From NCBI RefSeq assembly GCF_024700885.2, contig NZ_CP117016.1: a stretch of DNA of 64,000 nt; one strand, written 5' to 3'. The notes beneath the pieces are model-generated. The model was not told where the DNA came from. It saw only the letters and a list, made by a program, of their open reading frames with translations, and made no database searches. The position numbers and the translations under genes are program-made. The DNA comes from Escherichia coli. GTDB lineage: Bacteria > Pseudomonadota > Gammaproteobacteria > Enterobacterales > Enterobacteriaceae. Below, piece after piece: positions 31,827 through 48,124 of the stretch (positions are counted from its first letter, which is position 1; each line of letters begins with the position of its first letter).

Positions 31827-31991
31827 ATGGCAAAGCCGATCATCACGCTCAATGGCCTAAAAATCGTCATTATGTTGGGAATGCTGGTCATTATTCTCTG
31901 CGGTATCCGTTTTGCCGCCGAGATCATCGTGCCGTTTATTCTCGCATTATTTATTGCTGTTATATATAACTTATTTCGCATAACACATTGA
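31827..31991 (+). pseudogene. tqsA: tqsA 5' fragment (45 native codons fused to 9 island-derived codons)
   Basis: [45 protein letters not shown] then IYNLFRITH*; the reading frame continues at 47218. Confidence 0.85.
31955..31963. repeat. attL core (tgctgttat)
   Basis: Identical 9-mer at both junctions of the interrupted tqsA frame. Confidence 0.7.
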
Positions 31992-32036
31992 TTTAATTAA
32001 ATAATTAACACCGCAAAAAGTGCCAAAAATCGCAAA

Positions 32037-32100
32037 ATGACTACACCAGTGACTACACCGTTCGGTGCACTGTATGAAACAACGTGGAACAAATAGACAC
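32037..32100 (+). repeat. left-end arm repeat (tgactacacc x2 then aacaacgtggaacaa)
   Basis: Near-identical to 47067-47135 in the same orientation. Confidence 0.7.
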
Positions 32101-32179
32101 AAGAAATATACAGGCGGATCATCTTTCCAGGGGGAAGCACACCAATTCATGAGGGGCGTTAATGTCGATATGGGGATCC

Positions 32180-32580
32180 CCACCTACCGGAATTTTTTTC
32201 CGGTTAAACGTTAATCAGGCTGGTGGGCTTTACCTGTTCGGTAGGTGTTATGATTATCGTAATACCTTTCCCCCAATGGGGTAAAAGCATCAACCGTAAC
32301 GAAAGTCGTTATGGTTGCCACTGATACCCCAAATTTGGGTATCACGAGTAAGCCCCAAAATCTGGGTGTTACTCTTACTACCCAAACTACGGGTAGTTTC
32401 CGTAGTTTCATGGTCGAGTTGCAGATCTGCAACTCCCCCATTAACCACAGGCGAATTTCCGCCTTCGGTCATTCCTTAATCATCTGCGTAATCATAATGA
32501 TTATTCAGCAAGCGCAATTTTGCGCTTTGCTTAAAGTTCAGCGAGTTACCGCGCCGACTTCCTCAAATTGAGGTTTCCGA
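32180..32580. other. palindrome-dense non-coding region (candidate packaging site or structured RNA)
   Basis: Inverted repeats read directly: cacctaccg/cggtaggtg, gatacccc-aaat-ttgggtatc, ctaccc/gggtag, ttgcagatctgcaa, gcgcaattttgcgc, cctcaaattgagg. Confidence 0.4.
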
Positions 32581-32689
32581 AAATATCAGCGGGTTAGCGA
32601 TTAAGCTGACCATTAATTAAACTGCGAAAATGTCGTAGTTGTGAGGGGTGTAGCCAACCCATTTTTGGGCCGTCGGGAATATCAACCAG

Positions 32690-32971
32690 TTACCGCCGCA
32701 ACCGCTCCGGCTTCTTCCAGTGGTACGTTATTTTCTCCTTCTCCCGATACATCTCCACGCGGCGACGGTAGGCCAGCAACTCAAGAACTCTGGTTCGTAT
32801 GTTGCGCATATCCACGCCATTAAGTTCTATACCATCACGGCGCATCACCTCAGCAACAACACGCGCATAGTTTTCGGCTGTCACGCTGTCCGGCTGCGTG
32901 GCCTGTTCGTCAGCCTGCTGGCTGATTCCGGCAACGCGGCGGATTAATCCCGTTATTTCGGCTTCTGTCAT
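32690..32971 (-). CDS. hypothetical protein (last gene of head/packaging operon)
   Basis: 93-aa ORF 13 bp downstream of terL on the same strand. Confidence 0.5.
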   Translation of the reverse strand: MTEAEITGLIRRVAGISQQADEQATQPDSVTAENYARVVAEVMRRDGIELNGVDMRNIRTRVLELLAYRRRVEMYREKEKITYHWKKPERLRR

Positions 32972-32984
32972 GCTGCTGACCTCA

Positions 32985-34646
32985 TTACACCCCGCTAAAT
33001 TCTTCCAGTTTCTGGCGGTGGCTGTCGCTTATATCAAAAGCAAAATCCTCATGCTCTGCCTGGAATGTACCAAACGCCATCAGCGCCGCCACGCTCGGGT
33101 CTATCTTGTTCGGTGATTTTTTCTTGTTCGGCTTGATATTGGCGTTCGCGTCACTCTGCATCACGACGTTACTCATCGACCAGGACAACACCGGATCGCC
33201 ACGATGCACAATCACCCTGCGGTTAACAAAAACTTCGAACGATTTCGCCGCCGGACTGAATCTGAGGTAGGTTTGCGGGAACGGCTCCACCTCAAAACCT
33301 GCCCCCTGTAATTGCGTTCTGAGATGCGTGGCGTTCCACGTATCAAAGCCCACCAGCCTGATATTAAATTTCTCCGCGTCCTGCATGATGTCATCTCTGA
33401 TCCGGTCGTAATCAATGCAGTCGCCAGGCGTTGTGCGTATCCAGCCTGCTTTAGCCCACTGACGATAGATGGCGCGGTTTTTATTGGCGGGGTTCTGTAG
33501 CTGAAATTCCGGCAGATAGTGACGGGAAACCAGCATAATGGTTTTACCGACCGGAAAGGCATAGCACACGCTGGAAATATCGCTGGTTGATGATAAGTCC
33601 AGCCCCGCGTAACACTCCTGGCCGTGTAAATCTTCCTCCGTGAACGTTCCGGCACACTCAGCCCATGCGCCGTTACCCATCCACGGGGTAGCCCCCTGGC
33701 ACCAGATATTAAATCGCTTTGTCATCATCTCCACCCACTGCGACGGAATACCCCGCGCTTTCTGGATGGTTGAGGCCAGTTTTTCACGATCGACGGAAAC
33801 ATCAATATTAGGGTTCGCCTTTATCCACATCGCCGGATCATCAACCTCGTTTTCGTCGTCCAGTTCGTAAATCAGTACAAAAATTGAATCGTTAACCTCT
33901 TCGCCGTCCAGGATCTGGCAGCAATAATCATAGTGCTGCTTACAGGCTGAAACGACGTTGCTGCCTGATGTGGTAATGGCAAATAACAGCCCTTCGGGAC
34001 GTGCGCCCATCCCCAGCTCAAGCGCGGAATAAACGCCGTTATCGGGGTGCAAGTGGTATTCGTCCACGATGGAAAGGCTGGGGTTTGTTCCCTCGATGGT
34101 TGCCGCTTTTGCTGCCAGCGGCTTTAACAGGCTGTTGCTTTTCGGGTGTATCACCTTATGCGCCTGAATATTCACCCGCCTGCGTAACGGTCGGGATAAA
34201 AGGCACATCTGACGCGCATCATCAAAGACGATCCGCGCCTGGTCACGGCTCACCGCTGCGGTGTAGATATCCTGCTGACCGTTCTCCATAATCAGAAACC
34301 AGTTAGCCAGAATCGCGGCGGTCGTGGATTTCGCATTTTTGCGCGGCACTTCGATAAAGGCGCTCGTGTATTTGCGCCGTCCGGTGGCCTTAACCTTAAA
34401 GCCGAGGATGCACGCAAAGGCGAACTGCTGCCACGGCTCCAGCTCAATGGGTCTGCCACGCATCGGTCCTTTTACGTGCGGGCACACCCTGGAAAAGGCA
34501 ATAAACCGCTCCACAACCTCACGATCGAACGTGTAAAGGGGGCTTTTAAGGTCCGAAAAGTACCGTTTAACGGCCTGTTTCAGCCGTTTACAGGCCGGAA
34601 TTTTGCCCGTTTTTACGTCTTCTGCGTACTTATTCCAGGCGGTCAA
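32985..34646 (-). CDS. terminase large subunit
   Basis: 553-aa ORF with an N-terminal ATPase-like region and a C-terminal nuclease-like acidic region typical of TerL; overlaps terS by 17 nt. Confidence 0.85.
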   Translation of the reverse strand: MTAWNKYAEDVKTGKIPACKRLKQAVKRYFSDLKSPLYTFDREVVERFIAFSRVCPHVKGPMRGRPIELEPWQQFAFACILGFKVKATGRRKYTSAFIEVPRKNAKSTTAAILANWFLIMENGQQDIYTAAVSRDQARIVFDDARQMCLLSRPLRRRVNIQAHKVIHPKSNSLLKPLAAKAATIEGTNPSLSIVDEYHLHPDNGVYSALELGMGARPEGLLFAITTSGSNVVSACKQHYDYCCQILDGEEVNDSIFVLIYELDDENEVDDPAMWIKANPNIDVSVDREKLASTIQKARGIPSQWVEMMTKRFNIWCQGATPWMGNGAWAECAGTFTEEDLHGQECYAGLDLSSTSDISSVCYAFPVGKTIMLVSRHYLPEFQLQNPANKNRAIYRQWAKAGWIRTTPGDCIDYDRIRDDIMQDAEKFNIRLVGFDTWNATHLRTQLQGAGFEVEPFPQTYLRFSPAAKSFEVFVNRRVIVHRGDPVLSWSMSNVVMQSDANANIKPNKKKSPNKIDPSVAALMAFGTFQAEHEDFAFDISDSHRQKLEEFSGV

Positions 34647-34986
34647 GCTCGTCCTCTTCTTCTGTTTCCGGTGGGTTTTTACGGCGGCTTATCGGGTCAA
34701 AACCGAGCAAGGAGGCCATTTTTATCATCACCCTTTCAGCGTCTGATTTCGCGCTTAATGCGGGGTTTCTGCTCTCGCCGCCCTGACTGTTAACAATGCT
34801 GAACCCGCGCGCCGCAAGGTCTGCGACGGCTTTCCGGTAAATGGAGTAGTTGACACAATACAGTTCCAGATTGCTCCAGTCGGCGGGGGTCAGGTCTCCC
34901 CGTTCCGCAAGCTGCCGCGATTTTTCCCGCCACTGCTTCACGGCGATGTCATCCAGGTAGGCGGGGGCTTTCGGTGGTCTTGCCAT
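34630..34986 (-). CDS. terminase small subunit (P27-family-like)
   Basis: 118-aa ORF with the W…LTxAD…YC…NPA pattern typical of P27-type TerS; directly upstream of terL. Confidence 0.65.
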   Translation of the reverse strand: MARPPKAPAYLDDIAVKQWREKSRQLAERGDLTPADWSNLELYCVNYSIYRKAVADLAARGFSIVNSQGGESRNPALSAKSDAERVMIKMASLLGFDPISRRKNPPETEEEDELDRLE

Positions 34987-35108
34987 GCTTATTTTTCGTC
35001 AGATTATTTTTCAAAAAATTCCCGTGCATAAAAATTTGAGGAGGCGTTCGGTGCCCGGCGGGGTCGGGTTTGTCCTGAAAACGCCCCCCACCCCGTCATA
35101 CAGCCTCA

Positions 35109-35291
35109 TCAGCGATTGCGGAAACATTCCATAACCTCGCGGTCACGGTCGGTTAATCGCTTCGCTGTGATGCGTTCTGCGCGTCCTGACGCTTTATCTT
35201 TATGCCCTGTTTCCTGTGTCTTCCATGCGTCACGCTGCCTTATAAGTCCACGGATAAGGCGGTTTTGTTCCCGCTCATTCATCAGCGTCAT
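35109..35291 (-). CDS. possible small ORF between HNH and terS
   Basis: ~60 codons (MTLMNEREQNRLIRGL…) within the tail of a longer track ORF; could instead be non-coding cos-region DNA. Confidence 0.25.
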   Translation of the reverse strand: MTLMNEREQNRLIRGLIRQRDAWKTQETGHKDKASGRAERITAKRLTDRDREVMECFRNR

Positions 35292-35715
35292 ACATCCAGT
35301 TATTGCGGTTAGCGGCCCGTTCTTCCTCTTCACGAAATCCACCTGCGGCACGCTTGCTTTTTGTTGCCGGATCAAGCCATTTCGTTTTCTGGTTATGACA
35401 CGCCTGGCACAATGGTTGATGGTTCCATTCGGGCCAGAAGAGAACATCATCACCGCCATTAATCGGGATAATGTGATCCACCACCACGGCGGGCGTATAT
35501 ATCCCCTTCTCAAGGCATCGCACGCATAACGGGTTTTTACTCAGATACATGGCGCGGTATTTGTCCCACTGTCTGGAATATCCACGCGCGCGGCGGTGTC
35601 CTCGTCTGGCATCCTCTGCACGCCATGCCGCCCGCCTGTGCTCCTCACACTTGCCGGATTTAACGCGCCTGTTACAGCCTGGTTCTGTGCATCGTCTTAA
35701 TGGTTGCCACGGCAT
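35275..35715 (-). CDS. HNH endonuclease (terminase-associated)
   Basis: CxxC…HxxP…N…H…CxxCH arrangement in a 146-aa ORF next to terS. Confidence 0.8.
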   Translation of the reverse strand: MPWQPLRRCTEPGCNRRVKSGKCEEHRRAAWRAEDARRGHRRARGYSRQWDKYRAMYLSKNPLCVRCLEKGIYTPAVVVDHIIPINGGDDVLFWPEWNHQPLCQACHNQKTKWLDPATKSKRAAGGFREEEERAANRNNWMYDADE

Positions 35716-36011
35716 CAGTACACCCCCACATCACGGTAAGCCGTCCAGAGTGCGCCTATCGTCATGGGTACGCGTGTTTTTGCGTTATCCGCGACAATCT
35801 GGCGATTTTCATACAGGTGAGCGATAAACATCATGCAGCCAATCTTTATGGCTGGCGTGAACTCCAGCCCGTCATCAAAGCGCCTGCCTATGTGTATCTG
35901 GCACGCCTCAAGCGATGCGGCAATGTATCCGCTGATTAACTGGTCTTCATCGTCGCCATCGATGCGGCAATGGAGTTTCACTTCTTCCAGGGTGATAAGT
36001 TCTTCTGTCAT
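35715..36011 (-). CDS. gp6-like head-tail connector / head completion protein
   Basis: 98-aa ORF with N-terminus …TLEEVKLHCRIDGDDEDQLI… characteristic of this family. Confidence 0.6.
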   Translation of the reverse strand: MTEELITLEEVKLHCRIDGDDEDQLISGYIAASLEACQIHIGRRFDDGLEFTPAIKIGCMMFIAHLYENRQIVADNAKTRVPMTIGALWTAYRDVGVY

Positions 36012-36346
36012 TTTTCCGCGCCCTCACGACAAAGAATTTCAAGGCGTGTCCTGGCGGCATCCGGCAGCGGCTGCCCGATGATATTCAGTACACGCCCCGC
36101 CAGCGGCCCCGTACTGACCTTTATCCGGCTGGTGGCGTTGATGTCCTTCCGGTACCGTATCCAGATCCTTACGGTACCAATCGCCAGCTCTGCGCCCGAT
36201 GAAATGGCCTCCTTGCTGCTGACCATGTTCACGCTTGCCCAGAGTGTGTGACCGTCCTCCCACGTTTCGAGTATTTCGCCGGTTATATCCCTGGTCTGTT
36301 TCAGGGTCTGAATCGTTATCCTGTCACGCAGTCGCCCTATGTTCAT
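36008..36346 (-). CDS. head closure / head-tail adaptor protein
   Basis: ~112 aa from the internal Met of the track ORF; position between portal and gp6-like gene. Confidence 0.5.
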   Translation of the reverse strand: MNIGRLRDRITIQTLKQTRDITGEILETWEDGHTLWASVNMVSSKEAISSGAELAIGTVRIWIRYRKDINATSRIKVSTGPLAGRVLNIIGQPLPDAARTRLEILCREGAEK

Positions 36347-37554
36347 TCCGGTTTTTCTCCCTCGCTGATTTTTACTTCCTGTTTCCATGCCTGGCTGAAC
36401 TCATCACCACCATCACGCGGTGACAGACCTTCACGTTCGCGGGCTTCGTTCGGACACATAACGCCGGATTTGATGCCGCGCTCATAGGTGGCAAAGCGTT
36501 CGCCAGGTGTGGCCCGTAACAGGTCCGCGCTGTCAAACTCCACCTGATACCGGATACCAGGTACAGGCGAGGCCACCAGCAGGGCGTTTTTTATCTGCTG
36601 CTCAAAGTTCGCCAGCCACGGGCGCATCGTCATGGTGAGAAATGCGCGGCTTGCCTCGCTGAAATTGCTGTAGGTGCTGTTGCTGTATTCCTGCAAAAAA
36701 ATCGGCGAGACGTTGAACATTCGGGCGATGTCTTCAATGGTGAAGCGACGGGAGGCCAGCCATTCAGCATCCTGATTACTCATGCCCAGCTGCTGATAGC
36801 TCATACCCCCTTCAAGGATGGGCGTTTTTCCGGCGTTTCTGGCCCCTTTGTAGCGTTCCAGTGCGGCTAATGCCTGTTTGCCCTTCACGCCGTCCAGCCA
36901 TTCGCCTGACGTGATAACCCCTGCCGCCATCATGCCATCACGCATCACGCTCGCGCCGTGGCGTTGTTGGGCCAGCCCAAGCCCCAGCGATTCGCGGCAG
37001 ATGGTTACAGGTGAGCACCCCATAAAGCCGTCATCCGTGGAGTAACGAAGGTGAAGTACTTCCCACGGTAAATAGTTGCGGGTGTTTCCGGTGTAGGCGT
37101 CAGTGATGCAGTAGCGCCAGTTGTGTTCGCCTGTCTGCTCCACGTTCACCGACTGCGGCGGGTAAGGATGTAAAGCCGCCGGAAAACCATCACGCCCCCA
37201 CTGAATCACCGCATAAGCATTACCGTTTAACAGGCAGTGGCGGATCATCATTCGCTTAAACTGGTAGGGGGTTTGCCATGCGTTCGGGCGCTCGTTGAGG
37301 ATGTGATCGACCGGATGAGAATCAAGCCACTCGCGGGCCTCCTTCCCCTTCTCATTGCGTACCAGGTACAGGTAACACGGCATGGTAGCCACCGCCTCAG
37401 AGATGACCGTCACGGCGTTCATGACGGCGGGCAGTGATTCCGCTGTCCCCGATGATACGTACTCACCCGCCCCCGTGTTCGATGTGCCAGCCAGCGCCAT
37501 AAATTCATCCAGCGTCATGCTGCGCTGCTCTTTTTTTCTTCTGAAAGGCCACAT
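36343..37554 (-). CDS. portal protein (HK97 family)
   Basis: 403-aa ORF; size and position next to the prohead protease. Confidence 0.85.
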   Translation of the reverse strand: MWPFRRKKEQRSMTLDEFMALAGTSNTGAGEYVSSGTAESLPAVMNAVTVISEAVATMPCYLYLVRNEKGKEAREWLDSHPVDHILNERPNAWQTPYQFKRMMIRHCLLNGNAYAVIQWGRDGFPAALHPYPPQSVNVEQTGEHNWRYCITDAYTGNTRNYLPWEVLHLRYSTDDGFMGCSPVTICRESLGLGLAQQRHGASVMRDGMMAAGVITSGEWLDGVKGKQALAALERYKGARNAGKTPILEGGMSYQQLGMSNQDAEWLASRRFTIEDIARMFNVSPIFLQEYSNSTYSNFSEASRAFLTMTMRPWLANFEQQIKNALLVASPVPGIRYQVEFDSADLLRATPGERFATYERGIKSGVMCPNEAREREGLSPRDGGDEFSQAWKQEVKISEGEKPE

Positions 37555-37555
37555 A

Positions 37556-38128
37556 TCACACCCCCGCTAAATCCACCCACCAGCGGCGATTATCCGCACG
37601 CGGCATTTTTTCGGGGTGCTGCTCATACAGGGAACGGCGGGCCAGCTCCACGCCGGAATCGGGGTAAGCCGGTACCGATGTAACGGTAATTTCGTACAGT
37701 TCCGCCACCAGCACGGTGCGCACGCATGGATCTGTTGTGGTATCCCATACATCCTTACGGGAGCGAAAGCCAAAGCTCATCCCCGAGATGTCCCCACGCT
37801 TAACCAGTTCGATAACGTCGCGCCCTGTACTGGTATCCGGTGGGGTCAGTTCAAAGCGTAACCCTGTTTCGTCCTCTTCCAGTTTCAGCGTGCCGGAACG
37901 GGTGCGCCCCAGTAACATGCTGTGGTCATGCTCATACAGGCCGCGAACGTCATTACCCGCCGCAAGCCACTCAGTAAACGCCCCCCGCTGGAATTTTTCG
38001 TAAAACTCCCCCCATAGCAGTTCTGAAAGCTTATCCCAGCGAACAACGTAGCCCGTCAGCGTACCGGCTCCGCTGGTAGTGATTTCCGATGACCGGATTT
38101 CCATACTCTTCATAATTTTTTCACCCAT
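37556..38128 (-). CDS. prohead maturation protease (HK97 family)
   Basis: 190-aa ORF with the GMSFGF region characteristic of HK97 prohead proteases. Confidence 0.85.
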   Translation of the reverse strand: MGEKIMKSMEIRSSEITTSGAGTLTGYVVRWDKLSELLWGEFYEKFQRGAFTEWLAAGNDVRGLYEHDHSMLLGRTRSGTLKLEEDETGLRFELTPPDTSTGRDVIELVKRGDISGMSFGFRSRKDVWDTTTDPCVRTVLVAELYEITVTSVPAYPDSGVELARRSLYEQHPEKMPRADNRRWWVDLAGV

Positions 38129-38167
38129 AAAACACTAAAGGGGCTTTTAAGCCCCTTCTGTATGCTG

Positions 38168-39325
38168 TTAATCGTCGTCCTGTGGCAGTTCCAGAATCTT
38201 GATCGCGTTCGAATCCACCACGCCACCGCCTAAATATTTCTGCGTGAAAATTTTGATGAAGCCCGGCTCTGTGAGGTTGTCCGGTCTGGTGCGAACACCT
38301 GTTTCGTGATCAACAATGTAGTAACCGCGTTTGAAGTCACCCAGGGCAATAACGTTATCCGGCATAAACTCCAGATATTCGACCGGAAGGCCCAGTAACG
38401 TATCAGGATCACCCGCCTGTAAACGGTCGCGCCAGATGTAATCACCGTTCGCGTTCTTCACCTTCTGAAGTTTTGCCGCCGTCGTGGAGTTAACCACCCA
38501 GACCGCGTTTTTGCGGTATTTTTTACGTAATGCAAATTTCAGGTCGATCAGCGGGTCCGCAGATGTCCACGCCAGAGATTCGGAAGGTTTAATTACCTGC
38601 AACGTACCAAAATCACGCTCTTTGTCGTTCTTCTCTGCACGGGGTACGGATAAAAAGCCTTTTGCTTTTTTGTCACCGTCGCCCACAACCAGATCGCTTT
38701 CTTCGGTTTCCGTGAAGTTGTCGCCAATCTCGCCCGTCAGCCATGAAAGGATGTCCACATCGGAAAAATCCACGATTTCCTGCGTGGTGCGCGGGTACGC
38801 ATAGACCGGATACAGCTTAATGCTCACCTCGTTAATCTGCGGGGTGCTGGTCTGTTCGCGTGCCTTACCCTCTTCACCGTGGTTAACGGTCGCACCGCCA
38901 GCGGAAACAAGCTGCTTAAACTCGTTGCTGCTGATTTTCTTCACGGTACAGATGCGGCGCATGGTGGATTCATCCGTCAGCATTCGCATGATTTCGGTGT
39001 TCAGTTCGGGGATAACGGTATAACCACCATCAGCGGGAACGCCTGTACTTAATGCGCGGGTTTCACCTGTCAGAATGTAGTGACGTAGTTCGGCTGGGTC
39101 AGTGGTCTGACTGCTTTTACCTGGCTTGCTGCGCTCTTCGTCTGCAATGGCTTCAAGGCGGGAAATGTCTTTATCGAGGGATTCAGCTTTAGCGCGTAAT
39201 TCGTCAAATTTTGCGCCCTCAGCATCGTTAAGACTGCGGTTTTCTTTTTCCGCGTTCTCCAGCATGTCGCGCATCTGATTTTTAATGGCGGTTTTCTGCT
39301 GGCGTAATTCGATTATTCTCGGCAT
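38168..39325 (-). CDS. major capsid protein (HK97 fold) with N-terminal delta domain
   Basis: 385-aa ORF; N-terminal ~100 aa charged and coiled-coil-like, then a capsid-like region. Confidence 0.85.
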   Translation of the reverse strand: MPRIIELRQQKTAIKNQMRDMLENAEKENRSLNDAEGAKFDELRAKAESLDKDISRLEAIADEERSKPGKSSQTTDPAELRHYILTGETRALSTGVPADGGYTVIPELNTEIMRMLTDESTMRRICTVKKISSNEFKQLVSAGGATVNHGEEGKAREQTSTPQINEVSIKLYPVYAYPRTTQEIVDFSDVDILSWLTGEIGDNFTETEESDLVVGDGDKKAKGFLSVPRAEKNDKERDFGTLQVIKPSESLAWTSADPLIDLKFALRKKYRKNAVWVVNSTTAAKLQKVKNANGDYIWRDRLQAGDPDTLLGLPVEYLEFMPDNVIALGDFKRGYYIVDHETGVRTRPDNLTEPGFIKIFTQKYLGGGVVDSNAIKILELPQDDD

Positions 39326-39605: not shown

Positions 39606-39612
39606 TGTGTGA

Positions 39613-39894: not shown

Positions 39895-39897
39895 CCC

Positions 39898-40583: not shown

Positions 40584-40599
40584 ATTTATTTTTACCCCC

Positions 40600-40865
40600 T
40601 CGTTTAAAAAGTTTTGAGTTGTGCCTCCCCTTGTCTACCTTATCTACCTTAGTGGCCCTCATACCAGTAATGGCGCGGCTTTCAGCGGGGTAGAGTGCTT
40701 TTATCCACTATCTACCCCGTGTCTACCTCCCTGTCTGATTCAGGTAAAATCAGGTAGAGAGGGTAGATAGTGGGTAGACAGTAAAAAAAGGTTATCTACC
40801 TAACTTAATGCACTGAATTAAATGTATTTTTCTTTACTCAGGTAGACAGGGTAGACAGCAATTAC
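40600..40865. repeat. iteron-rich candidate replication origin
   Basis: At least 12 copies of a 7-9-bp unit (ggtagaca / tctacc) in both orientations, immediately 3' of the primase gene. Confidence 0.7.
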
Positions 40866-40871
40866 AAAAAA

Positions 40872-42626
40872 TTATAAAAACGCGTCGCACTCGTCTGTTG
40901 TTATTGCGTTAGTCTGCGTTACTCCCTTAACTTTCCGCGTAATATATTCATGTCCGTAAACTTTCGCGGCTGGCTTCATAGCCTTGCCAAAGTCATTTAC
41001 GTTTAGCGGTTTGCTCCTGCCTGCGTACGCCATAAACGCCAGATAGACGCGGTAAAGGCTGTTTCTGGTCGTGTACTTCACTGAATCGCCACCGCCGCCC
41101 ATCATCAGGCCGCGTGCTTCCTCCAGAAAATTCAGGAACTGGCAAAACTCAATAACCGGATCCGTCTGTTGCTTTATTGCCAGAGCTTCATCACCGTCAC
41201 GCTGTTCCAGTAGTAAAGCCCGTGCCTTCTCAGGGTCGGTAAAGTTCGCCAGCAATCGGCGGATAATGACAGGGATTTCAGCCGCGATCTTTTCCGGTAG
41301 CTCCCTGTCTTTTTCGGCCTCACTGACGATATTGTCGAAACGGAAAATCACGCGACGACGTGCCACACCTCCGGCCCGTTCGGTGAATATCATCGGGTTA
41401 TTGTTGGTCGCCAGCACCACCGCCCTGATTACCGCCGTGAAACGCTTTTCGTATTTCGGGTTAATTTCCACGGGGTCACCGCCCGTGATTTTCTTGATGC
41501 CCGTTCCTTCGCCTGTATATTTCGGCTGGTCAGCCAGGACGATAAGACGACTCCCGACAACCTGCGCACGTCCACCAGCATCATCAAGCGATGTCATTTC
41601 AGCGCTTACCGTGTTCTGTTTCCCTGCCAGAAGGCTGGCTATGTGTGTGAATGTACTTTTACCGCTCCCGCCGTCTCCGGTGGCCTCAATAAACATCTGC
41701 CAGTCGTACCGGTTCGCCATAATCATGTACAGCGCGGCACATATACGCATCATCTTGCGCGGGTCTTTTCCGGCTGCGTGCTCAAGCCATTTATGAAAGT
41801 TTGGCGCGTTATCGCGGATGTTCTCCCCTGGTGCTGGTGGCGTGTACTCAATGCCGTTGTGCGTGGTGATCCAGTTCTCCGGCGTGTGCGGGGAAAATTC
41901 CCCCGTTTTCAGGTCAAGCGCACCATTGGCGAACGGCAACAAATCGCCGGACGGCTCGCCCATTGGTTCGGCAATAACTTTTAACGCTTCCACGGCGTTA
42001 TTGATTACGCGCTTGCTGAAAGTGGCCCTGTGCTCTGAATAGATCGCCACCATTTCGCGGCTAAGTTCCATTGTGCTGACCGGACACCATACCCCGCCGC
42101 GCCATACGTGAACGATTTCACTTTCAGGATGTACGCAAACGCCATCAAAGCGATCGGCAAGCAGTTGCGCGCGCTCACTGTCCGCCATCTGCGAAAGTTG
42201 CGCCTTTTGCTTTACCGGAAGCTCAATGACCAGACCATCAGAAAGATTCTGGCGCTCACGGGCCAGATATTCGCGCCAGTTCTCCACCTTCTGACCGTGC
42301 ATACCATCAGGGTAAAAATTTGCATCCTGTACGCCTGCCGCCGCCAGCTTCTGACCAATCGCCTTTATCATTACTGGCGCAAGATATCCGGCCCTGAATA
42401 TGCGCACGGATTTTCTGCCTTCCGGCACAATTTGCAGCTTATCCAGTTCGGATAACTGCTGCTCCCCAAGCCACACAGGAGGCTCATTATCTCCGGCCAT
42501 ACGCGCGTCATGTTCCTGCCATTGTTTTGCGTGTGACCAGGCATCACTACCCGCAAAAATAATGACTTCTGTTTCTTTGTGTTTTATGCCGCGTGACTGC
42601 TGTTTTACGTTCGGTGCCAGTTTCAT
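40872..42626 (-). CDS. replication protein: primase/helicase (P4-alpha / D5-like)
   Basis: 584-aa ORF with Walker A GDGGSGKST. Confidence 0.8.
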   Translation of the reverse strand: MKLAPNVKQQSRGIKHKETEVIIFAGSDAWSHAKQWQEHDARMAGDNEPPVWLGEQQLSELDKLQIVPEGRKSVRIFRAGYLAPVMIKAIGQKLAAAGVQDANFYPDGMHGQKVENWREYLARERQNLSDGLVIELPVKQKAQLSQMADSERAQLLADRFDGVCVHPESEIVHVWRGGVWCPVSTMELSREMVAIYSEHRATFSKRVINNAVEALKVIAEPMGEPSGDLLPFANGALDLKTGEFSPHTPENWITTHNGIEYTPPAPGENIRDNAPNFHKWLEHAAGKDPRKMMRICAALYMIMANRYDWQMFIEATGDGGSGKSTFTHIASLLAGKQNTVSAEMTSLDDAGGRAQVVGSRLIVLADQPKYTGEGTGIKKITGGDPVEINPKYEKRFTAVIRAVVLATNNNPMIFTERAGGVARRRVIFRFDNIVSEAEKDRELPEKIAAEIPVIIRRLLANFTDPEKARALLLEQRDGDEALAIKQQTDPVIEFCQFLNFLEEARGLMMGGGGDSVKYTTRNSLYRVYLAFMAYAGRSKPLNVNDFGKAMKPAAKVYGHEYITRKVKGVTQTNAITTDECDAFL

Positions 42627-42922
42627 TTTTTACCCCTGAATCCGTTAATCATGGTTTTCAGCTTCTGGATGTTTGCCCGTGCCCTGGCGTTGCTGGTGGA
42701 CACGTTATGCGGCGCGGTCTGTACCAGAGAAAAATCACGCCGGAACTGATAAACAGGCATCACGCAATCATATTCGTAACCTTCACGGCGGTAGGTTACG
42801 CGCCGTTCTTCCACGCCCTTAATCATTACCGTGCCGCCGTACTGGTCGCGGTAAATATCGCCGCGCGTAAATTTAGGGTGAGTGTTGCCACTGGCAGTTA
42901 AGCCAGAATATTTAAGTTTCAT
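42623..42922 (-). CDS. hypothetical protein
   Basis: 99-aa ORF; stop overlaps primase start (ATGA). Confidence 0.55.
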   Translation of the reverse strand: MKLKYSGLTASGNTHPKFTRGDIYRDQYGGTVMIKGVEERRVTYRREGYEYDCVMPVYQFRRDFSLVQTAPHNVSTSNARARANIQKLKTMINGFRGKK

Positions 42923-42927
42923 TATTT

Positions 42928-43161
42928 TTATTCTCCGGTGTGCTGTTCTTTATATCTGTCGTGCAATAGATCTATTTCTTGCAGTTCCATTATTACAGGC
43001 TCAAGAAGCGTTATTAATGCCGTGGCAATTCTTGATTTTTGTTTGTCGCGTTCATTGTCGCCAAGTGTTTCAAGCCATATGCGCAATATTTCCAGCATGT
43101 TTTCACTGTGAGAAAGTGCAAGAAATGCGCGGTCTATTGTTTCGTGGTAAATATCACGCAT
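42928..43161 (-). CDS. hypothetical protein
   Basis: 77-aa ORF in a tightly packed same-strand operon. Confidence 0.5.
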   Translation of the reverse strand: MRDIYHETIDRAFLALSHSENMLEILRIWLETLGDNERDKQKSRIATALITLLEPVIMELQEIDLLHDRYKEQHTGE

Positions 43162-43387
43162 GGCTTACATCCTCAGGAAATTTTCTTCTATAACGCGCCT
43201 CTGCCACATATTCCGCATAATCGGCGGCGATATTCAGTACATCAAGCCCCGTTGATTTATATTCTCTCGTGGAAAGTAAGAAAAAAGCCGCTCTAATAAG
43301 TTCTGGCATTGACGAAAGCGCATCAGCCGCATCATCAGGAACGCCGGAAAATTCCTGTTTCAGGGAATTAAAACGATCATCACGCAT
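43154..43387 (-). CDS. hypothetical protein
   Basis: 77-aa ORF with 8-nt overlap to the next gene. Confidence 0.5.
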   Translation of the reverse strand: MRDDRFNSLKQEFSGVPDDAADALSSMPELIRAAFFLLSTREYKSTGLDVLNIAADYAEYVAEARYRRKFPEDVSHA

Positions 43388-43745
43388 GTTTACCCCCCTG
43401 AATGACCTGATAACCGCAACTGGTCAGCAACTCGATAAATTCCGGCAGTGTGCCGAAACAGCAATCATCACGCAGCCGTTCACAGGATACCTCGACGCCG
43501 TTTTCGTAGTGACTCACCATACATCCGGTAAAATGCAGATCATCATCGTGATGGCTCGTTGACGGCTTAATCAGTCGCGCACGTTCCGCCAGTTCCAGCA
43601 ATGCTTCAACGCTTCCGGCAATTGCACCATCCGGCAGGTGATAATTACGCACTATGCGCCCGTTCTCCACATTGACCAGCAACTGCCCGGTAAATTTCTC
43701 ATCAAACTGAATGCTGTTAAGGTCAGAAATTGACAGATTATGCAT
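43380..43745 (-). CDS. hypothetical protein
   Basis: ~121 aa from MHNLSISDL; Cys-containing. Confidence 0.5.
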   Translation of the reverse strand: MHNLSISDLNSIQFDEKFTGQLLVNVENGRIVRNYHLPDGAIAGSVEALLELAERARLIKPSTSHHDDDLHFTGCMVSHYENGVEVSCERLRDDCCFGTLPEFIELLTSCGYQVIQGGKHA

Positions 43746-43962
43746 GGTGCACCTCCTGCACATCAGCCATGATAATTTTTCCGGCCTTATCCAGTGCCTG
43801 ATCGGCTTTTAGCTGCACAAATGCTAAATAATGGAAGATGCATTCTGATTCTCTGGCTGCGTGTTTATGCGCCCTGTCAGCAATAACAGAAATATCAATA
43901 AGCGCGTGCATCAGCGTAGTGAGCGCGGCGGCGGCTGCGTCCGGTGTGGTTTTATTGCACAT
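43738..43962 (-). CDS. hypothetical protein
   Basis: ~74 aa from an internal Met of the 92-aa track ORF; start uncertain. Confidence 0.4.
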   Translation of the reverse strand: MCNKTTPDAAAAALTTLMHALIDISVIADRAHKHAARESECIFHYLAFVQLKADQALDKAGKIIMADVQEVHHA

Positions 43963-44182
43963 GTACCCCTCCGCATTTTTTTTCGTTAGAAATAAGCGTT
44001 CTTCTTTCCTGTTCATCGCTCAGGAATACGCAGACCTCACCGCTAAGGCGTTTAAGTAAGCCGATGATTGCCCCTGATTCGCTGTCGGTCATCATGCCAG
44101 GGTAATCCTCTGCCAGTGCGCAAATAACTTCGATTTGGTGGGCGCGTTCTGCTGCCTGTTGTAGTGTGATTTCCTGGCTCAT
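43952..44182 (-). CDS. hypothetical protein
   Basis: 76-aa ORF. Confidence 0.5.
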   Translation of the reverse strand: MSQEITLQQAAERAHQIEVICALAEDYPGMMTDSESGAIIGLLKRLSGEVCVFLSDEQERRTLISNEKKCGGVHVQ

Positions 44183-44379
44183 AAGCCTACCCCCTGACGA
44201 ATACGGGCAGCAAATACCATCACGCAGCCAGCCGGAGATTGCTGGCGTGCTTCCTGTTCGCTGGTGGCCTCAATGGTAATCACGCGCGGTTGTGCCGTGC
44301 TCAGGGCGATAAAACGCCAGATGTATTTATTCAGGTTGTGCGAGTCCCGCCCTTGCGGGTGTGTGGTATGATTTCTCAT
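44179..44379 (-). CDS. hypothetical protein (possible first gene of early operon)
   Basis: 66 codons from the last Met of the long track ORF; GAGGT RBS 4 nt upstream; stop overlaps the next start. Confidence 0.35.
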   Translation of the reverse strand: MRNHTTHPQGRDSHNLNKYIWRFIALSTAQPRVITIEATSEQEARQQSPAGCVMVFAARIRQGVGL

Positions 44380-44475
44380 AGCTACCTCGATACTTTCGCT
44401 ATCGTTGGTGGTTAGAAGCCCGGTTAGTGTTAGCGCACTGCCGGGTTTCGTCGTTTCTGCACCTTGCGCCAACAA

Positions 44476-44549
44476 GGTGTTGAACACCAATTTAAACCCA
44501 GGTGTTAAACACGTCAAGTGTTGAACACTTATTTTTTTTCCTGCATACT
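44476..44549. promoter_or_regulatory. divergent control region with three 13-bp palindromic operators and a sigma70-like promoter
   Basis: ggtgttgaacacc (44476-44488), ggtgttaaacacg (44501-44513), agtgttgaacact (44517-44529); ttgaac -35 and catact -10 with 17-bp spacer. Confidence 0.6.
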
Positions 44550-44578
44550 GCATTTGTTTTTTATGAGGGGTACACCAC

Positions 44579-44758
44579 ATGGCGACAAAAGCGGTAAACG
44601 CAAAATCACAAACCGTTGCGGCAAGGGTTCCGCATGAAGTTATGAACAATGTTGAGGCGGTAAAAATGCCTGGCGAAAGTACGGGGCAATTTGTTACTGC
44701 GGCATTAAAACGAGAAGTTGAATATCGCCAGCGGCGCAAGGCCAAAGAACCAGAGTAA
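44579..44758 (+). CDS. small DNA-binding protein, probable ribbon-helix-helix regulator
   Basis: Hand-translated 59-aa ORF MATKAVNAKSQTVAARVPHEVMNNVEAVKMPGESTGQFVTAALKREVEYRQRRKAKEPE; gagggg RBS 8 nt upstream. Confidence 0.55.
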   Translation: MATKAVNAKSQTVAARVPHEVMNNVEAVKMPGESTGQFVTAALKREVEYRQRRKAKEPE

Positions 44759-45084
44759 TCACCATCAGCGCCGTGGTGTAAGGTATTACGGCGCATTGCT
44801 ATGCAGGACAACACAATGACCGATAAAGAATTGACCAAAACATTATCACCGGCACGGAAAAGACGGCGCAGAAAGATAGAGCATGAATCAGAAAGATTCG
44901 CGCCATGTGCTTTTGCCCTTGAGCAATTCCTTAAAGAGTACAGGGAAAAGCGCTCATTGCAGGTATGGCAACGAACTGAACCAGACTGATTGCATTGCCC
45001 ACCAGCCTGATAACGGCTATCATCCCCGTGCTTATGTTTGGGATCACACACACAAACGGCGCAGCGGGTTATCTGTTCAGAAAG

Positions 45085-45112
45085 GCGGCTCCATTTCGGG
45101 GCCGCTTTTTTT
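45085..45112 (+). terminator. intrinsic terminator
   Basis: Hairpin gcggctcc…ggggccgc followed by T7. Confidence 0.6.
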
Positions 45113-45258
45113 ATACCTGAAAAACCCCAATTTTGTTGTTTTTCAGTTTCACCAGGGCGAACGAATCCCCGCCCACGTTCTGGCGTATATTCAATCTTCA
45201 TGGTTATAGCTCTGTGTTCAGATGATTGATGTGTGGCGGCTGCGTGCCGCCAGCGTGA

Positions 45259-45528
45259 TTAATGAACTGCCTTGCAGCTATCCTTCCAGGCCAGAACCTC
45301 GGATAAAGACCAGCCAACGGAACGACCGCCAAGTTTACGACGTGATGGGAATTGTCCGGCCTTTTCCAGGCGGTAGCGACACGTACGGCTAAGGCCGGTT
45401 AGTTTTTCGCATTCTTTTTCACGTATAAACCGATCAGTGCTTAACACTATTGCCCCCCTTTCGTTTCTTAAAGAGTCATCAGGTGTCTTATTGTGTCGTA
45501 TTGTTCCCGCTAGAGTGATGAATGGCAA
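45259..45528 (-). CDS. alpA: AlpA-family transcriptional regulator / excisionase-like
   Basis: C-terminal …LTGLSRTCRYRLEKAGQFPSRRKLGGRSVGW… HTH typical of AlpA; true start probably internal. Confidence 0.7.
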   Translation of the reverse strand: MPFITLAGTIRHNKTPDDSLRNERGAIVLSTDRFIREKECEKLTGLSRTCRYRLEKAGQFPSRRKLGGRSVGWSLSEVLAWKDSCKAVH

Positions 45529-45720
45529 ATACTGAGGATGTATGATTTACAGAAAATGAAACAGTAAGAATAAAATTTTTTAAATTCATGTTAATACAAA
45601 GGCATAAAATATTGTTCCATGCCTTTTTTCTCGCTCTTTAAAGAGTGATTCGCTAGTGTACAAAAAACCAGTAACGCATTAAAAATCAGCTACTTATAAA
45701 TCCGTACGCTTTTTCGCCTC

Positions 45721-45760
45721 TTGTTCGTAGTTGTTCCACATTGTTGCTCATTGTTGCACG
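45721..45760. repeat. internal copy of ACAACGTGnAACAA motif (reverse orientation) upstream of alpA
   Basis: Reverse complement reads acaacgtgcaacaatgagcaacaatgtggaacaactacgaacaa. Confidence 0.55.
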
Positions 45761-45812
45761 TTGTATCTGTTCGCATATCCAGTATGCGCATACTGAAAAA
45801 ACACGAAAAAAA

Positions 45813-47042
45813 TTATTTTCTTCTGGCTACGGGTAGCGTGGTTACGTTTTCATGTGTTCCCGCCAGTATCCCTAACCGCTCCGTCCACATATCCAGCGCA
45901 TTGCGTTTCGCATCCAGATAACGGGAATGATTATAAACTCGCTGCATTCCTGGCATCTGGTGGCCTGTAAGCTGCTCCACGACATGCGGATCAACGCCTA
46001 AATCGTTCAGCATGGTTGTAAAGGTGCGCCGGATGTCATGCAGTGACCAGTGAGGGTGATTAAGCCTCCTGTACGCTAATCTTCCATACTGCGATACGCT
46101 GGCCTCCTGTTTCACTTCCCCCAGCAATAAGCCCGTGTGCCTGTTCTGCTCCACCAGCTGCGTGACGAACGGCAGGATCGCTTCCGGTATGGGCCGGAAT
46201 ATTGCGACCTTCGTTTTGCTGTGCTCCTTCGGAACGGTCCATAGCATTTCCGTAAAATCCCACTCCCCGATCTCCGATAACCTCAGTTCTACCGTTCTGG
46301 CTCCGAAGACAATCAGGAGGCGGATTAACGCGACGTAGTAAGGGGAGAATATTTTTTTGTCCAGTGCCTGCAATAATTCGCCAAGTTCTTTGTTACTTAA
46401 GACACGTTCGCTTATATCCGGTTTTTTCCCAACGTCCGCAACGTTCAGATCGTCCAGAACGTTGCTGATTGCATAGCGCCGCCTACGGCAGAACTTAAGC
46501 GCCTGTTTGCACGCCTGTAGCACGAATCCGGCAGTAACAGGCGTTCGCTTTGCCACCTGGTCAAAACAGGCCAGCCAGTGCCGTAGCTCGCATTTATCCA
46601 GCGGCATAGCACCAATCTGCTGTATTACGTGATTATTAAGTCGCCTTTTCAGGGCGATATAATCCACGCGGTTTTCCTTTACGTAATACTCAAGCCAGTA
46701 GGTGAGCGCATCGCCAACCGTTACGGGCTTTAACGCTTCCTGTACGGTGTAATTCATCTCATGACGTGGATTTTTCCCCTCAGCCAGCCATGTGCGACAC
46801 TGTGCGGCTTTTTCCCTGGCTGCTTTCAGGCTCAGATCAGGATAACTTCCCAGCTTAATGCGTTCGGGTCGTGTCTCCCTTCCCGTTCCGGCCCTGTATG
46901 TGAAATACCAGGTCAATTTCCCTGATGTTAAATATTTCACGCTCAGGTTTCCGCCATCACTATAAAACGTGTTTTTCTCCGCTGGCTTACCATGAAGTTT
47001 CCTTAGCAAGGTATCGCTCAGTTTGTTCATTGCTCTGCTCAC
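45813..47042 (-). CDS. int: tyrosine recombinase / integrase
   Basis: 409 aa with C-terminal catalytic region (HDIRRT…RVYNHSRY); adjacent to attR. Confidence 0.9.
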   Translation of the reverse strand: MSRAMNKLSDTLLRKLHGKPAEKNTFYSDGGNLSVKYLTSGKLTWYFTYRAGTGRETRPERIKLGSYPDLSLKAAREKAAQCRTWLAEGKNPRHEMNYTVQEALKPVTVGDALTYWLEYYVKENRVDYIALKRRLNNHVIQQIGAMPLDKCELRHWLACFDQVAKRTPVTAGFVLQACKQALKFCRRRRYAISNVLDDLNVADVGKKPDISERVLSNKELGELLQALDKKIFSPYYVALIRLLIVFGARTVELRLSEIGEWDFTEMLWTVPKEHSKTKVAIFRPIPEAILPFVTQLVEQNRHTGLLLGEVKQEASVSQYGRLAYRRLNHPHWSLHDIRRTFTTMLNDLGVDPHVVEQLTGHQMPGMQRVYNHSRYLDAKRNALDMWTERLGILAGTHENVTTLPVARRK

Positions 47043-47066
47043 GTTTTACCCCCTCTTTACGAAAAA

Positions 47067-47135
47067 GTGACTACACCAGTGACTACACCGATCGTTGCAC
47101 AAAGGGCTACAACGTGAAACAAGCTGGAACAAGGA
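47067..47135 (+). repeat. right-end arm repeat (gtgactacacc x2 then acaacgtgaaacaa)
   Basis: Matches 32037-32100; lies between int and attR. Confidence 0.7.
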
Positions 47136-47217
47136 AAATCACAAATCTATTGATAATCAAAAACATAATGCACAGCCTGAAACATTATGAAACAGCAAAA
47201 AACACTAAATGATAAAA

Positions 47218-47226
47218 TGCTGTTAT
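47218..47226. repeat. attR core (tgctgttat)
   Basis: Direct repeat of 31955-31963. Confidence 0.7.
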
Positions 47227-48124
47227 TCTTAACCCGCTGGTGCAACACATGGTCCGCTGGCGTGTGCCGCGTGTACTGGCAGTGTCGATTTTGATGACCA
47301 TCATCGTGATGGCGATGGTGTTGCTGTTAGCTTATCTGGGTTCCGCACTCAACGAGTTGACGCGGACGTTACCGCAATATCGCAACTCTATTATGACGCC
47401 GCTGCAAGCTCTTGAACCGTTGTTGCAACGCGTAGGGATTGACGTCTCAGTTGACCAACTGGCGCATTACATTGATCCGAACGCGGCGATGACGTTGCTC
47501 ACCAACTTATTGACGCAGTTATCTAATGCCATGTCATCAATCTTTTTATTGCTGCTGACGGTGCTGTTTATGCTGCTCGAAGTGCCACAATTGCCCGGAA
47601 AATTTCAGCAAATGATGGCGCGTCCGGTTGAAGGGATGGCGGCGATTCAGCGTGCGATTGACAGTGTGTCTCATTATCTGGTGCTGAAAACAGCCATCAG
47701 CATCATCACCGGCCTGGTCGCCTGGGCGATGCTCGCCGCACTCGATGTTCGCTTCGCTTTTGTCTGGGGATTGCTGGCCTTTGCGCTTAATTACATCCCG
47801 AATATTGGTTCAGTTCTCGCGGCAATCCCCCCTATTGCTCAGGTACTGGTGTTTAATGGCTTCTACGAAGCGTTGCTGGTGCTGGCGGGATATCTGCTGA
47901 TTAATCTGGTCTTCGGCAATATTCTGGAGCCACGCATCATGGGGCGTGGGCTGGGGCTTTCCACATTGGTGGTATTTTTGTCGTTGATTTTTTGGGGATG
48001 GTTGTTAGGACCGGTGGGTATGCTGCTTTCCGTGCCGTTGACAATTATTGTCAAAATTGCGCTTGAACAAACAGCGGGAGGTCAAAGCATCGCCGTTCTG
48101 TTAAGCGATCTCAATAAAGAGTGA
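47218..48124 (+). pseudogene. tqsA: tqsA 3' portion, separated from its start and promoter
   Basis: In-frame continuation …[16 protein letters not shown]…; track ORF 47240-48124 (GTG start) covers the C-terminal 294 aa. Confidence 0.85.

Follow-up and report, generated by a model that had tools for sequence, protein, structure and literature searches.

An island with the gene content of a capsid-forming phage satellite splits Escherichia coli tqsA at a published attachment site

In the stretch of E. coli DNA analyzed here (64,000 nucleotides, referred to as the window), the gene for the AI-2 exporter TqsA lies in two pieces on either side of a mobile element. The locus raises the question of whether this arrangement is a device, in which departure of the element gives the gene back to a living cell, or a by-product of the place where the element happens to land. 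The initial annotation proposed the former, as a possible lysogeny-dependent switch in AI-2 export. Every segment of the window that was tested has 100% identity to E. coli MLI114 (NZ_CP117013.1), and the PGAP annotation of that identical locus is used throughout.

The window sequence shows that tqsA, a gene of 344 codons, is broken after codon 45 by an element of 15,263 bp. A perfect 9-bp direct repeat, TGCTGTTAT, lies at both element ends and corresponds to codons 43 to 46 of tqsA. The features of the two junctions are as follows.

31827..31991, plus strand: tqsA 5′ fragment (translation; alignment with the intact attB and with seven other carriers; PGAP partial pseudogene in MLI114)
31955..31963, no strand assigned: attL core TGCTGTTAT, with the same nine base pairs in attR and attB; read on the other strand, it gives the published tqsA PICI core ATAACAGCA
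47218..47226, no strand assigned: attR core TGCTGTTAT, exact 9-bp repeat
47219..48124, plus strand: tqsA 3′ fragment, codons 44 to 344 (in-frame reading; PGAP partial pseudogene; intact in 7/7 carriers sampled)

On translation, the 5′ open reading frame (ORF) gives 54 amino acids, which begin with MAKPI, run to LFIAVI, and end with YNLFRITH before a stop codon. Its host part is codons 1 to 45 (31827 to 31961), followed by nine element-influenced codons and the stop, with eight alien residues at attL. Codon 46 spans the end of the 9-bp core and reads ATA in the window versus ATT in the intact gene, Ile in each, so that the division into 45 host residues and nine element-influenced codons, as originally described, is exact at the DNA level and agrees with both the translation and the intact gene. 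The frame of the 3′ piece is open from 47219 (GCT, Ala44) to the stop at 48124 and is closed upstream by an in-frame TAA at 47213, one codon before the attR core. The earliest start after this TAA is GTG 47240 (Val51), which yields 294 amino acids, and the next is ATG 47249 (Met54); the distal ORF was therefore correctly described from the outset as intact and in frame, with a possible GTG restart. A replacement N terminus supplied by the element was considered and rejected, as the TAA at 47213 is in frame and no ORF runs into tqsA. The gene is truly interrupted, and the element brings no substitute N terminus. Nothing in the attP arms makes up for the displaced 5′ part of the gene, so tqsA would be knocked out for as long as the island stays.

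When the halves were joined in silico, they formed a 1,035-nucleotide ORF whose product equals TqsA of a K-12-derived strain at 344/344 residues; between the two genes there are 13 nucleotide differences, every one a synonymous change at a third position. The rebuilt product matched PDB 7NB6 over residues 1 to 344 (E = 1e-208), and the empty attB junction reads …TTTATTGCTGTTATTCTTAACCC…. The integrase gene int (409 codons), alpA, and both att cores are intact in the element, and precise excision would give back the wild-type tqsA ORF; the earlier statement that excision restores the gene is thus upheld in silico only, by the joining of the halves. No second tqsA copy was found: the distal segment has a single place in the matching MLI114 chromosome, and an attB probe found 5,674 places in 5,422 genomes (5,170 uninterrupted plus 252 split in two), exactly the number expected for one tqsA copy per genome.

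The distal ORF had also been called promoterless. A sigma-70 consensus scan of 46600 to 47400 found no promoter, and direct reading of the sequence showed no Shine-Dalgarno sequence before either GTG 47240 or ATG 47249. The scan also missed the int promoter, which must lie in the same interval, and it is therefore insensitive; likewise, crude consensus scans for promoters and terminators near attR and attL gave nothing above shuffled expectation. An extended −10-like element, TGATAAAAT, lies at 47210 to 47218 in AT-rich arm DNA and, given the crudeness of the scan, makes some transcription of the distal ORF conceivable. The label “promoterless” consequently keeps its two negative observations, no sigma-70 match and no Shine-Dalgarno sequence, and loses force to the insensitivity of the scan and the presence of TGATAAAAT. 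On balance, the distal ORF is probably not expressed. In TqsA, helix H1 (residues 7 to 29) is the main cytoplasmic pentamer contact and H2 comprises residues 31 to 57; a product starting at Val51 lacks H1 entirely, together with 20 of the 27 H2 residues. Neither the 54-residue stub nor any product that starts at Val51 is expected to function, and the carrier has probably lost TqsA function. Since E. coli has three TqsA paralogues, YhhT (46% identical), YdiK, and PerM, this loss need not abolish AI-2 export.

Judged by its gene content, the element is a capsid-forming phage-inducible chromosomal island (cf-PICI) of the EcCIEDL933 type, with these features.

31964..47217, minus strand for nearly all genes: cf-PICI, EcCIEDL933 type (PGAP table of the identical MLI114 locus; Pfam; capsid match to PDB 9GYI)
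32034..32109, plus strand: attP arm, attL side, a 76-nucleotide direct repeat with 47064 to 47139 (motif counts versus shuffles; conserved in the O157 cf-PICI)
32985..34646, minus strand: terminase large subunit (PF03354 and PF20441; PGAP)
34630..34986, minus strand: terminase small subunit, P27 family (PF05119; WP_000113645.1, also in the O157 element)
35275..35715, minus strand: HNH endonuclease (PF01844)
35715..36346, minus strand: head-tail connector (35715 to 36011) and head closure protein (36008 to 36346) (PGAP, identical locus)
36343..37554, minus strand: portal protein (PF04860, E = 6e-90)
37556..38128, minus strand: HK97-type prohead protease (PF04586)
38168..39325, minus strand: major capsid protein, HK97 fold (PF05065; full-length match to PDB 9GYI)
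39613..40308, minus strand: PerC-family regulator (39613 to 39885) and SSB (39898 to 40308) (PGAP; PF00436)
40872..42626, minus strand: primase/replication protein (Pfam D5_N, DUF5906, and Pox_D5; PGAP “DNA primase family protein”)
45259..45447, minus strand: alpA, PICI inducer or excisionase-like regulator (PF05930; WP_000953272.1, identical in the O157 cf-PICI)
45813..47042, minus strand: tyrosine integrase with arm-binding domain (PF13356 and PF00589; 91% identical to the phoQ-roxA cf-PICI integrase)
47064..47139, plus strand: attP arm, attR side, a 76-nucleotide direct repeat with 32034 to 32109 (motif counts)

Measured core to core, the element falls inside the size range of cf-PICIs, which span ~10 to 15.5 kb with a short direct repeat. 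The int, alpA, and primase backbone lies entirely on the minus strand, giving one transcription direction, and the element has its own head genes (capsid, prohead protease, portal, head-tail connectors, HNH, TerS, and TerL, by Pfam and PGAP). Its capsid protein is virtually identical to that of EcCIEDL933 (PDB 9GYI), with a match of 848 bits over 385 amino acids (E = 5.8e-255). Neither the list of ORFs nor the PGAP table for MLI114 includes a tail or lysis gene. With this cf-PICI gene set, and with tail and lysis genes missing, the element is not a prophage; the lysogenic phage implied by a “lysogeny-dependent” switch gives way to what, on this gene content, is a helper-dependent satellite.

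The attachment arms have the layout of a P4-like integrase system, in which an enzyme with an N-terminal arm-binding domain and a catalytic domain is accompanied by repeated arm sites flanking a short core. The attL-side arm holds two tandem copies of TGACTACACC (32038 to 32059) and ACAACGTGGAACAA (32079 to 32092), and the attR-side arm holds two tandem copies of TGACTACACC (47068 to 47089) and ACAACGTGAAACAA (47109 to 47122); the tandem TGACTACACC copies on the two arms are the only exact ones in the window. A further motif, ACAACGTGRAACAA, occurs five times, against 0.05 expected, and is found in both att arms, upstream of alpA, and upstream of the capsid operon. The 700-bp noncoding left end had no Rfam match at the gathering score and two matches at chance level.

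The docking site itself is not new. Fillol-Salom et al. 2018 (ISME J, Table S1) gave tqsA, with the core ATAACAGCA, as the att site of the PICIs EcCI042 and EcCIK1516, and this core is the reverse complement of TGCTGTTAT. The att gene, the 9-bp core, the position of the split, and the int-alpA-rep backbone are all common to those islands and the one described here. However, EcCI042 and EcCIK1516 are classical PICIs of ~11 kb that remodel helper capsids, whereas the 15.3-kb island of the window brings its own genes for capsid, portal, protease, connector, HNH, and terminase; equivalent 11-kb islands are present in EcPF5, O18:H1 CFSAN067215, and RM9245. Bobay et al. 2013 had already placed tqsA among genes disrupted by integration, with the occupants called prophages by an automatic pipeline. 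An island at tqsA is therefore a correct but ordinary observation.

In its other genes the island resembles EcCIEDL933, the prototype cf-PICI (Alqurainy et al. 2022/2023; He et al. 2025; PDB 9GYI), with the same gene order and content and a capsid protein that matches 9GYI over all 385 residues. In O157 strains, EcCIEDL933-type islands lie between phoQ and roxA (ycfD), at a core with ATATGTCC, and interrupt no gene. The O157 phoQ-roxA element matches the window island in gene order, its AlpA and TerS are identical, and near-identity of the attP arms extends as far as the core, which differs. The integrases, in contrast, share only 91% identity and diverge mostly within their first 60 residues, and the arm repeats read GTGACTACACC in the window island versus TTAACTACACC in the O157 islands. 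Compared with the intergenic O157 site, the core of the window island has been retargeted into tqsA. Induction of cf-PICIs by helper phage requires alpA, and EcCIEDL933, induced by its helper through alpA, builds small T=4 capsids that are fitted with helper tails. Because the modules are near-identical, the window island would probably be induced in the same way, form T=4 capsids, and take helper tails. He et al. 2025 report capsid formation by cf-PICIs in the absence of a productive helper, so the induction biology of these islands is not fully settled.

Among complete E. coli genomes, the tqsA site is interrupted in 252 of 5,422 (~4.6%) and intact in 5,170. An int-tqsA junction was found in 246 of 5,426 complete genomes, an attL flank identical to that of the window in 207, and 80% or more of the island, wherever inserted, in 158, counts that do not separate cf-PICIs from classical PICIs at tqsA. 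All eight occupied sites that we inspected hold PICIs or cf-PICIs, and of the 252 genomes with an interrupted site, 246 show the PICI int junction. Seven sampled carriers from different lineages, which hold cf-PICIs, 11-kb classical PICIs, and a cf-PICI damaged by IS5, all share one breakpoint; moreover, the site is occupied in O157:H7 PV15-279 and intact in O157:H7 TW14359. The tqsA site has been hit in multiple independent events. In all seven sampled carriers both halves of tqsA are free of frameshifts and stops, with 0 to 2 amino acid changes, even where the island is damaged. Undamaged halves fit recent insertion and equally fit selection for restorability; as tqsA divergence among carriers is ≤1%, the absence of decay carries little weight, and we dropped decay as a measure of age or of selection because divergence this low cannot discriminate.

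The anatomy of the element, its exact junctions, the in silico restoration, the single copy of tqsA, and the recurrence across lineages and element types are direct observations. The reading that we consider likely is site-specific integration of a cf-PICI, with disruption of tqsA as a tolerated by-product of the landing site and not a regulatory device. An EcCIEDL933-type island would integrate by site-specific recombination at a dedicated attachment site, TGCTGTTAT in tqsA, where its P4-type tyrosine integrase would recognize the core together with the repeated arm sites that flank attP. The gene would simply be knocked out during residence of the island and restored by precise excision. Excision of PICIs is coupled, via AlpA, to helper-phage induction and packaging, such that the excising cell would normally be lost; this coupling of excision to cell death is what we infer for the window island.

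A reversible switch would require the opposite, namely, that excision in surviving cells restores AI-2 export and re-integration stops it. This idea was shared by the initial annotation and Mageeney et al. 2020, who listed tqsA as one of 19 new “regulated gene integrity” candidates and whose Pfam-disruption test was “yes” for three E. coli tqsA elements. Like the known examples of regulated gene integrity or active lysogeny (the phi10403S prophage in Listeria comK and the skin element in sigK), the window island interrupts a conserved coding region without restoring it, excision would precisely rebuild the gene, and the site recurs, being hit repeatedly in many lineages by one tight integrase clade; both halves, as noted, are intact in every carrier sampled. 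The candidate listing rests on these same properties. However, they are purely genomic, and any satellite with a fixed intragenic att site shares them equally, while the low divergence of tqsA takes most of the weight from the intact halves. In the proven cases, excision is regulated developmentally or environmentally and the surviving cells use the gene, whereas PICI excision is tied to the helper lytic cycle. To our knowledge, no PICI has regulated excision in surviving, gene-using cells. The putative regulator motif ACAACGTGRAACAA ties the att arms to the packaging operon, and no experimental report connecting a PICI to tqsA function was found in the literature searched. Since excision depends on helper-triggered alpA and is followed by packaging and, normally, lysis, we regard a reversible switch as decidedly improbable.

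Stable conversion by gene loss, in which the knockout benefits carrier or island and the site is selected as a landing pad with no switching, seems unlikely. Deletion of tqsA is reported to raise biofilm formation, motility, intracellular AI-2, and lsr expression (Herzberg 2006), and the site is occupied across pathotypes and sources. Nevertheless, tqsA is intact in 95% of genomes and, with its 13 differences from K-12 all synonymous, is under purifying selection, and YhhT, YdiK, and PerM may mask any effect. In addition, most PICI att sites in the table of Fillol-Salom et al. 2018 are intergenic, which means that the choice of site can be explained without a benefit specific to one gene. Hardest to credit is expression of the 294-residue ORF from an element or junction promoter as a truncated TqsA with residual, altered, or dominant-negative activity, which we hold to be extremely doubtful. 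The intact frame, its two possible starts, and the −10-like TGATAAAAT would allow it, but the starts lack Shine-Dalgarno sequences, no consensus promoter was found, the neighboring int is transcribed in the opposite direction, and the protein would be without most of H2 and all of H1, the main protomer contact around the fivefold axis. Poisoning of YhhT pentamers is an example of what such a protein could do.

Tolerated site-specific integration thus remains our preferred reading, and its significance beyond correct annotation is small: the two tqsA pieces are one gene split by a mobile satellite. Regulated gene integrity at tqsA has been in print since 2020, and nothing in the present analysis strengthens that idea. 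It is very improbable that occupancy of tqsA is a functional device, either as a reversible block whose helper-independent, AlpA-driven excision in surviving cells would toggle AI-2 export and biofilm behavior or through truncated TqsA interfering with YhhT pentamers; if it were, carriage of a phage satellite would be linked to quorum-sensing behavior in ~5% of E. coli strains. Excision in surviving cells, if shown, would make the locus a cheap test system for regulated gene integrity by a satellite and not a prophage. Roughly one sequenced E. coli strain in 20 has tqsA split in this way, and comparisons of AI-2 export or biofilm formation among natural isolates should check tqsA occupancy.

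The window, which shares 100% identity with E. coli MLI114 (NZ_CP117013.1) in every segment tested, carries the AI-2 exporter gene tqsA as two pieces separated by a gap of 15.3 kb, both of them already annotated by PGAP as partial pseudogenes:

31827-31991, plus strand: tqsA 5' ORF, downstream of mdtJI, encoding TqsA residues 1-46, then YNLFRITH and a stop
47219-48124, plus strand: tqsA 3' part, an open frame from GCT (Ala44) at 47219 to the natural stop at 48124

Alignment with K-12-derived tqsA placed a 9-bp core, TGCTGTTAT, at 31955-31963 and 47218-47226, with a single copy in the empty site; from core to core, the island is 15,263 bp long. Codon 46 spans the core end and retains Ile by chance. 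An in-frame TAA at 47213 closes the 3' frame on the upstream side, and the earliest start codon within it is a GTG at 47240 (Val51), giving a 294-aa ORF. Rejoined in silico, the halves yielded a 1,035-nt gene with 13 nucleotide differences from the K-12-derived gene, all synonymous (13/13), and a product identical to K-12 TqsA at 344/344 residues. The initial annotation had described 45 host residues fused to 9 element-derived codons, a remainder in frame past attR with a possible GTG restart at 47240, and predicted restoration of the gene on excision. Because the junction alignment agrees with the residue and codon counts, the observation is confirmed in every detail, the 45-plus-9 count being exact at the DNA level.

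The island genes lie in the following groups:

minus strand: tyrosine integrase with an arm-binding domain, and alpA
minus strand: small ORFs, Icd-like ones among them
minus strand: D5-type primase, SSB and a PerC-family regulator
minus strand: HK97-type capsid protein, prohead protease, portal and two head-tail connector proteins
minus strand: HNH endonuclease, small and large terminase subunits

Neither tail nor lysis genes turned up for the island in the ORF list, the PGAP table of the identical locus or Pfam. We therefore rejected a prophage reading of this phage-inducible chromosomal island (PICI) backbone with its own capsid and terminase genes; the lysogenic phage originally supposed is not borne out, and the gene content points to a helper-dependent satellite, a capsid-forming PICI (cf-PICI). 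The capsid protein matches PDB 9GYI, the deposited capsid of the prototype cf-PICI EcCIEDL933, across 385/385 residues (E=5.8e-255). A cf-PICI located between phoQ and roxA in an O157:H7 genome has the same gene order and identical AlpA and TerS. Since gene set, capsid match and O157:H7 gene order agree, the island qualifies as a cf-PICI on every sequence-level criterion of Alqurainy et al.; it would presumably also depend on a helper and form small capsids.

A mechanically listed 340-aa ORF at 44179-45201 (minus strand) overlaps a PGAP partial Icd-like pseudogene and, on the other strand, a small YlcI/YnfO gene, and is likely spurious or a remnant. The left end of the island (31964-32690, about 700 bp) contains no convincing ORF and no Rfam match; 31982-32319 within it is 90% conserved in the O157 cf-PICI. 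Within the window's annotated positions (1-49400), neither a prophage nor a possible helper phage was found apart from the PICI. STnc560, an Hfq-binding sRNA at 1591-1804 on the minus strand (Rfam RF01407, 281.9 bits), adjoins ydeE/mgtS and is an ordinary chromosomal feature. The gene ydfJ, at about 9400-10750 (3949-5316 in locus L010), is annotated intact; in K-12 it is interrupted by the Qin prophage.

A 217-nt probe spanning the empty site showed tqsA to be uninterrupted in 5,170 and interrupted in 252 of 5,422 genomes; its 5,674 places equal 5,170 + 2 x 252, as one copy per genome would give. The int-tqsA junction occurred in 246 and the same left flank (attL) in 207 of 5,426 complete genomes, and at least 80% of the island, at any site, in 158 genomes. 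We compared seven carriers besides the window strain. PCN033 and O157:H7 PV15-279 have intact cf-PICIs at tqsA, NMBU-W12E19 has a cf-PICI with IS5 in terL, and EcPF5, O18:H1 CFSAN067215 and RM9245 have 11-kb classical PICIs in the same attB. The breakpoint and 5' fragment were identical in all seven, and the 3' fragment was intact in all seven, with 0 to 2 amino acid changes. The identical breakpoint in varied carriers and an empty site in another O157:H7 strain imply that the site has been hit repeatedly and recently. In NMBU-W12E19 (L008, 1304-4029), terL is split by the IS5-family element, so that its cf-PICI probably cannot package; its tqsA halves are still intact. In the classical PICIs, the capsid-related module is another one ("major capsid protein" and "head decoration protein"), and the island of RM9245 has a replication protein of the RepA-helicase type. 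As judged from these sequences, the comparison shows modular exchange behind a common int/att module at the tqsA attB.

Compared with the enzyme of the phoQ-roxA island, the integrase shows 91% identity, and residues 1-60 account for over half of the differences. Between the two islands, the attP arms hardly differ until the core is reached, which is ATATGTCC at the O157 site and TGCTGTTAT here. Each arm contains one copy of a 76-nt direct repeat (32034-32109 and 47064-47139), and a tandem pair of TGACTACACC lies on either side of the attP core (32038-32059 and 47068-47089), these four exact copies being the only ones in the 64-kb window. At the same positions, the O157 island has TTAACTACACC. 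The TGACTACACC repeats thus resemble arm-type integrase sites whose sequence varies together with the integrase N-terminal domain, which suggests that arm sites and arm-binding domain co-varied while the core was retargeted. A PGAP 60-aa "hypothetical protein" between int and the tqsA 3' fragment (WP_001332680.1, 47030-47212, plus strand) overlies the arm repeats and is frameshifted in EcPF5 and is therefore probably not a real gene. A further motif, ACAACGTGRAACAA, is present in five copies, where chance would predict 0.05:

32079-32092 and 47109-47122, plus strand: one copy in each att arm
45731-45744 and 45751-45764, minus strand: two copies upstream of alpA
39542-39555, plus strand: one copy upstream of the capsid operon

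From this distribution, ACAACGTGRAACAA is a candidate target of a single regulator, plausibly AlpA, which would tie excision to the packaging programme and late-gene expression.

In the cryo-EM structure of TqsA, H1 (residues 7-29) of five protomers entwines at the fivefold axis as the main cytoplasmic contact, and H2 comprises residues 31-57. We infer with good reason that TqsA function is lost while the island is present, because the 54-aa stub retains only H1 and half of H2, and a product starting at Val51 would lack H1 and most of H2. A second tqsA copy, which the initial annotation had set against its own proposal, was sought in the MLI114 chromosome and not found, the distal segment having one place there. 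Redundancy through YhhT (46% identical), YdiK and PerM is possible. The distal ORF had also been called promoterless. An insensitive scan found no consensus promoter by it, GTG 47240 and ATG 47249 both lack a Shine-Dalgarno sequence, and int transcription runs away from tqsA; however, an extended −10-like element, TGATAAAAT, lies on the plus strand exactly at the attR junction (47210-47218), 22 nt upstream of GTG 47240. This putative promoter element has no −35 element. Given the element and the insensitivity of the scan, the ORF is likely, but not proven, to be promoterless. An expressed truncated TqsA protein is very improbable.

The att site, core, disruption and regulatory hypothesis are all already in print. 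In Fillol-Salom et al. (2018), Table S1 assigns PICIs EcCI042 and EcCIK1516 to att gene tqsA with core ATAACAGCA, the exact reverse complement of TGCTGTTAT, and EcCICFT073 to ycfD-phoQ with core GGACATATTT, which agrees with the O157 site. Bobay et al. (2013) listed tqsA as a core gene disrupted by integration. The abstract of Mageeney et al. (2020) puts it forward as a new candidate for "regulated gene integrity", and in their supplement three E. coli islands in tqsA (11, 15 and 16 kb) pass the domain-disruption test. According to Alqurainy et al., classical PICIs also use four of six cf-PICI sites. Our literature search found no main text mentioning both "PICI" and "tqsA", and no printed confirmation in the main texts searched that a capsid-forming island uses the tqsA site.

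We favor simple, tolerated insertional inactivation of tqsA by the island as the probable explanation; adaptive stable loss of the gene is unlikely. A true switch, in which regulated excision turns tqsA back on, draws on the intact int, alpA, cores and arms, which constitute the machinery for precise excision that would restore the gene, and on the intact halves in all carriers, which are compatible with selection for restorability. Such halves are, however, also expected from recent insertions at no more than 1% divergence, and the features behind the candidacy of tqsA for regulated gene integrity (the disruption is not restored, the integrases form a tight clade and the site recurs) fit any satellite with a fixed intragenic site equally well. 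Moreover, cf-PICI induction needs alpA, switched on by a helper phage (Alqurainy et al.). A helper phage would thus turn on alpA and excision, to be followed by replication, packaging and lysis, and because helper-triggered excision would end in this way, a cell regaining tqsA would not be expected to survive to use TqsA. We consider such a switch quite improbable. The initial interpretation is therefore supported in part: a lysogeny-dependent switch in AI-2 export is unsupported, whereas tqsA is inactivated, restorable and without a second copy, and the element that occupies it is a satellite, presumably helper-dependent, and not a lysogenic phage.
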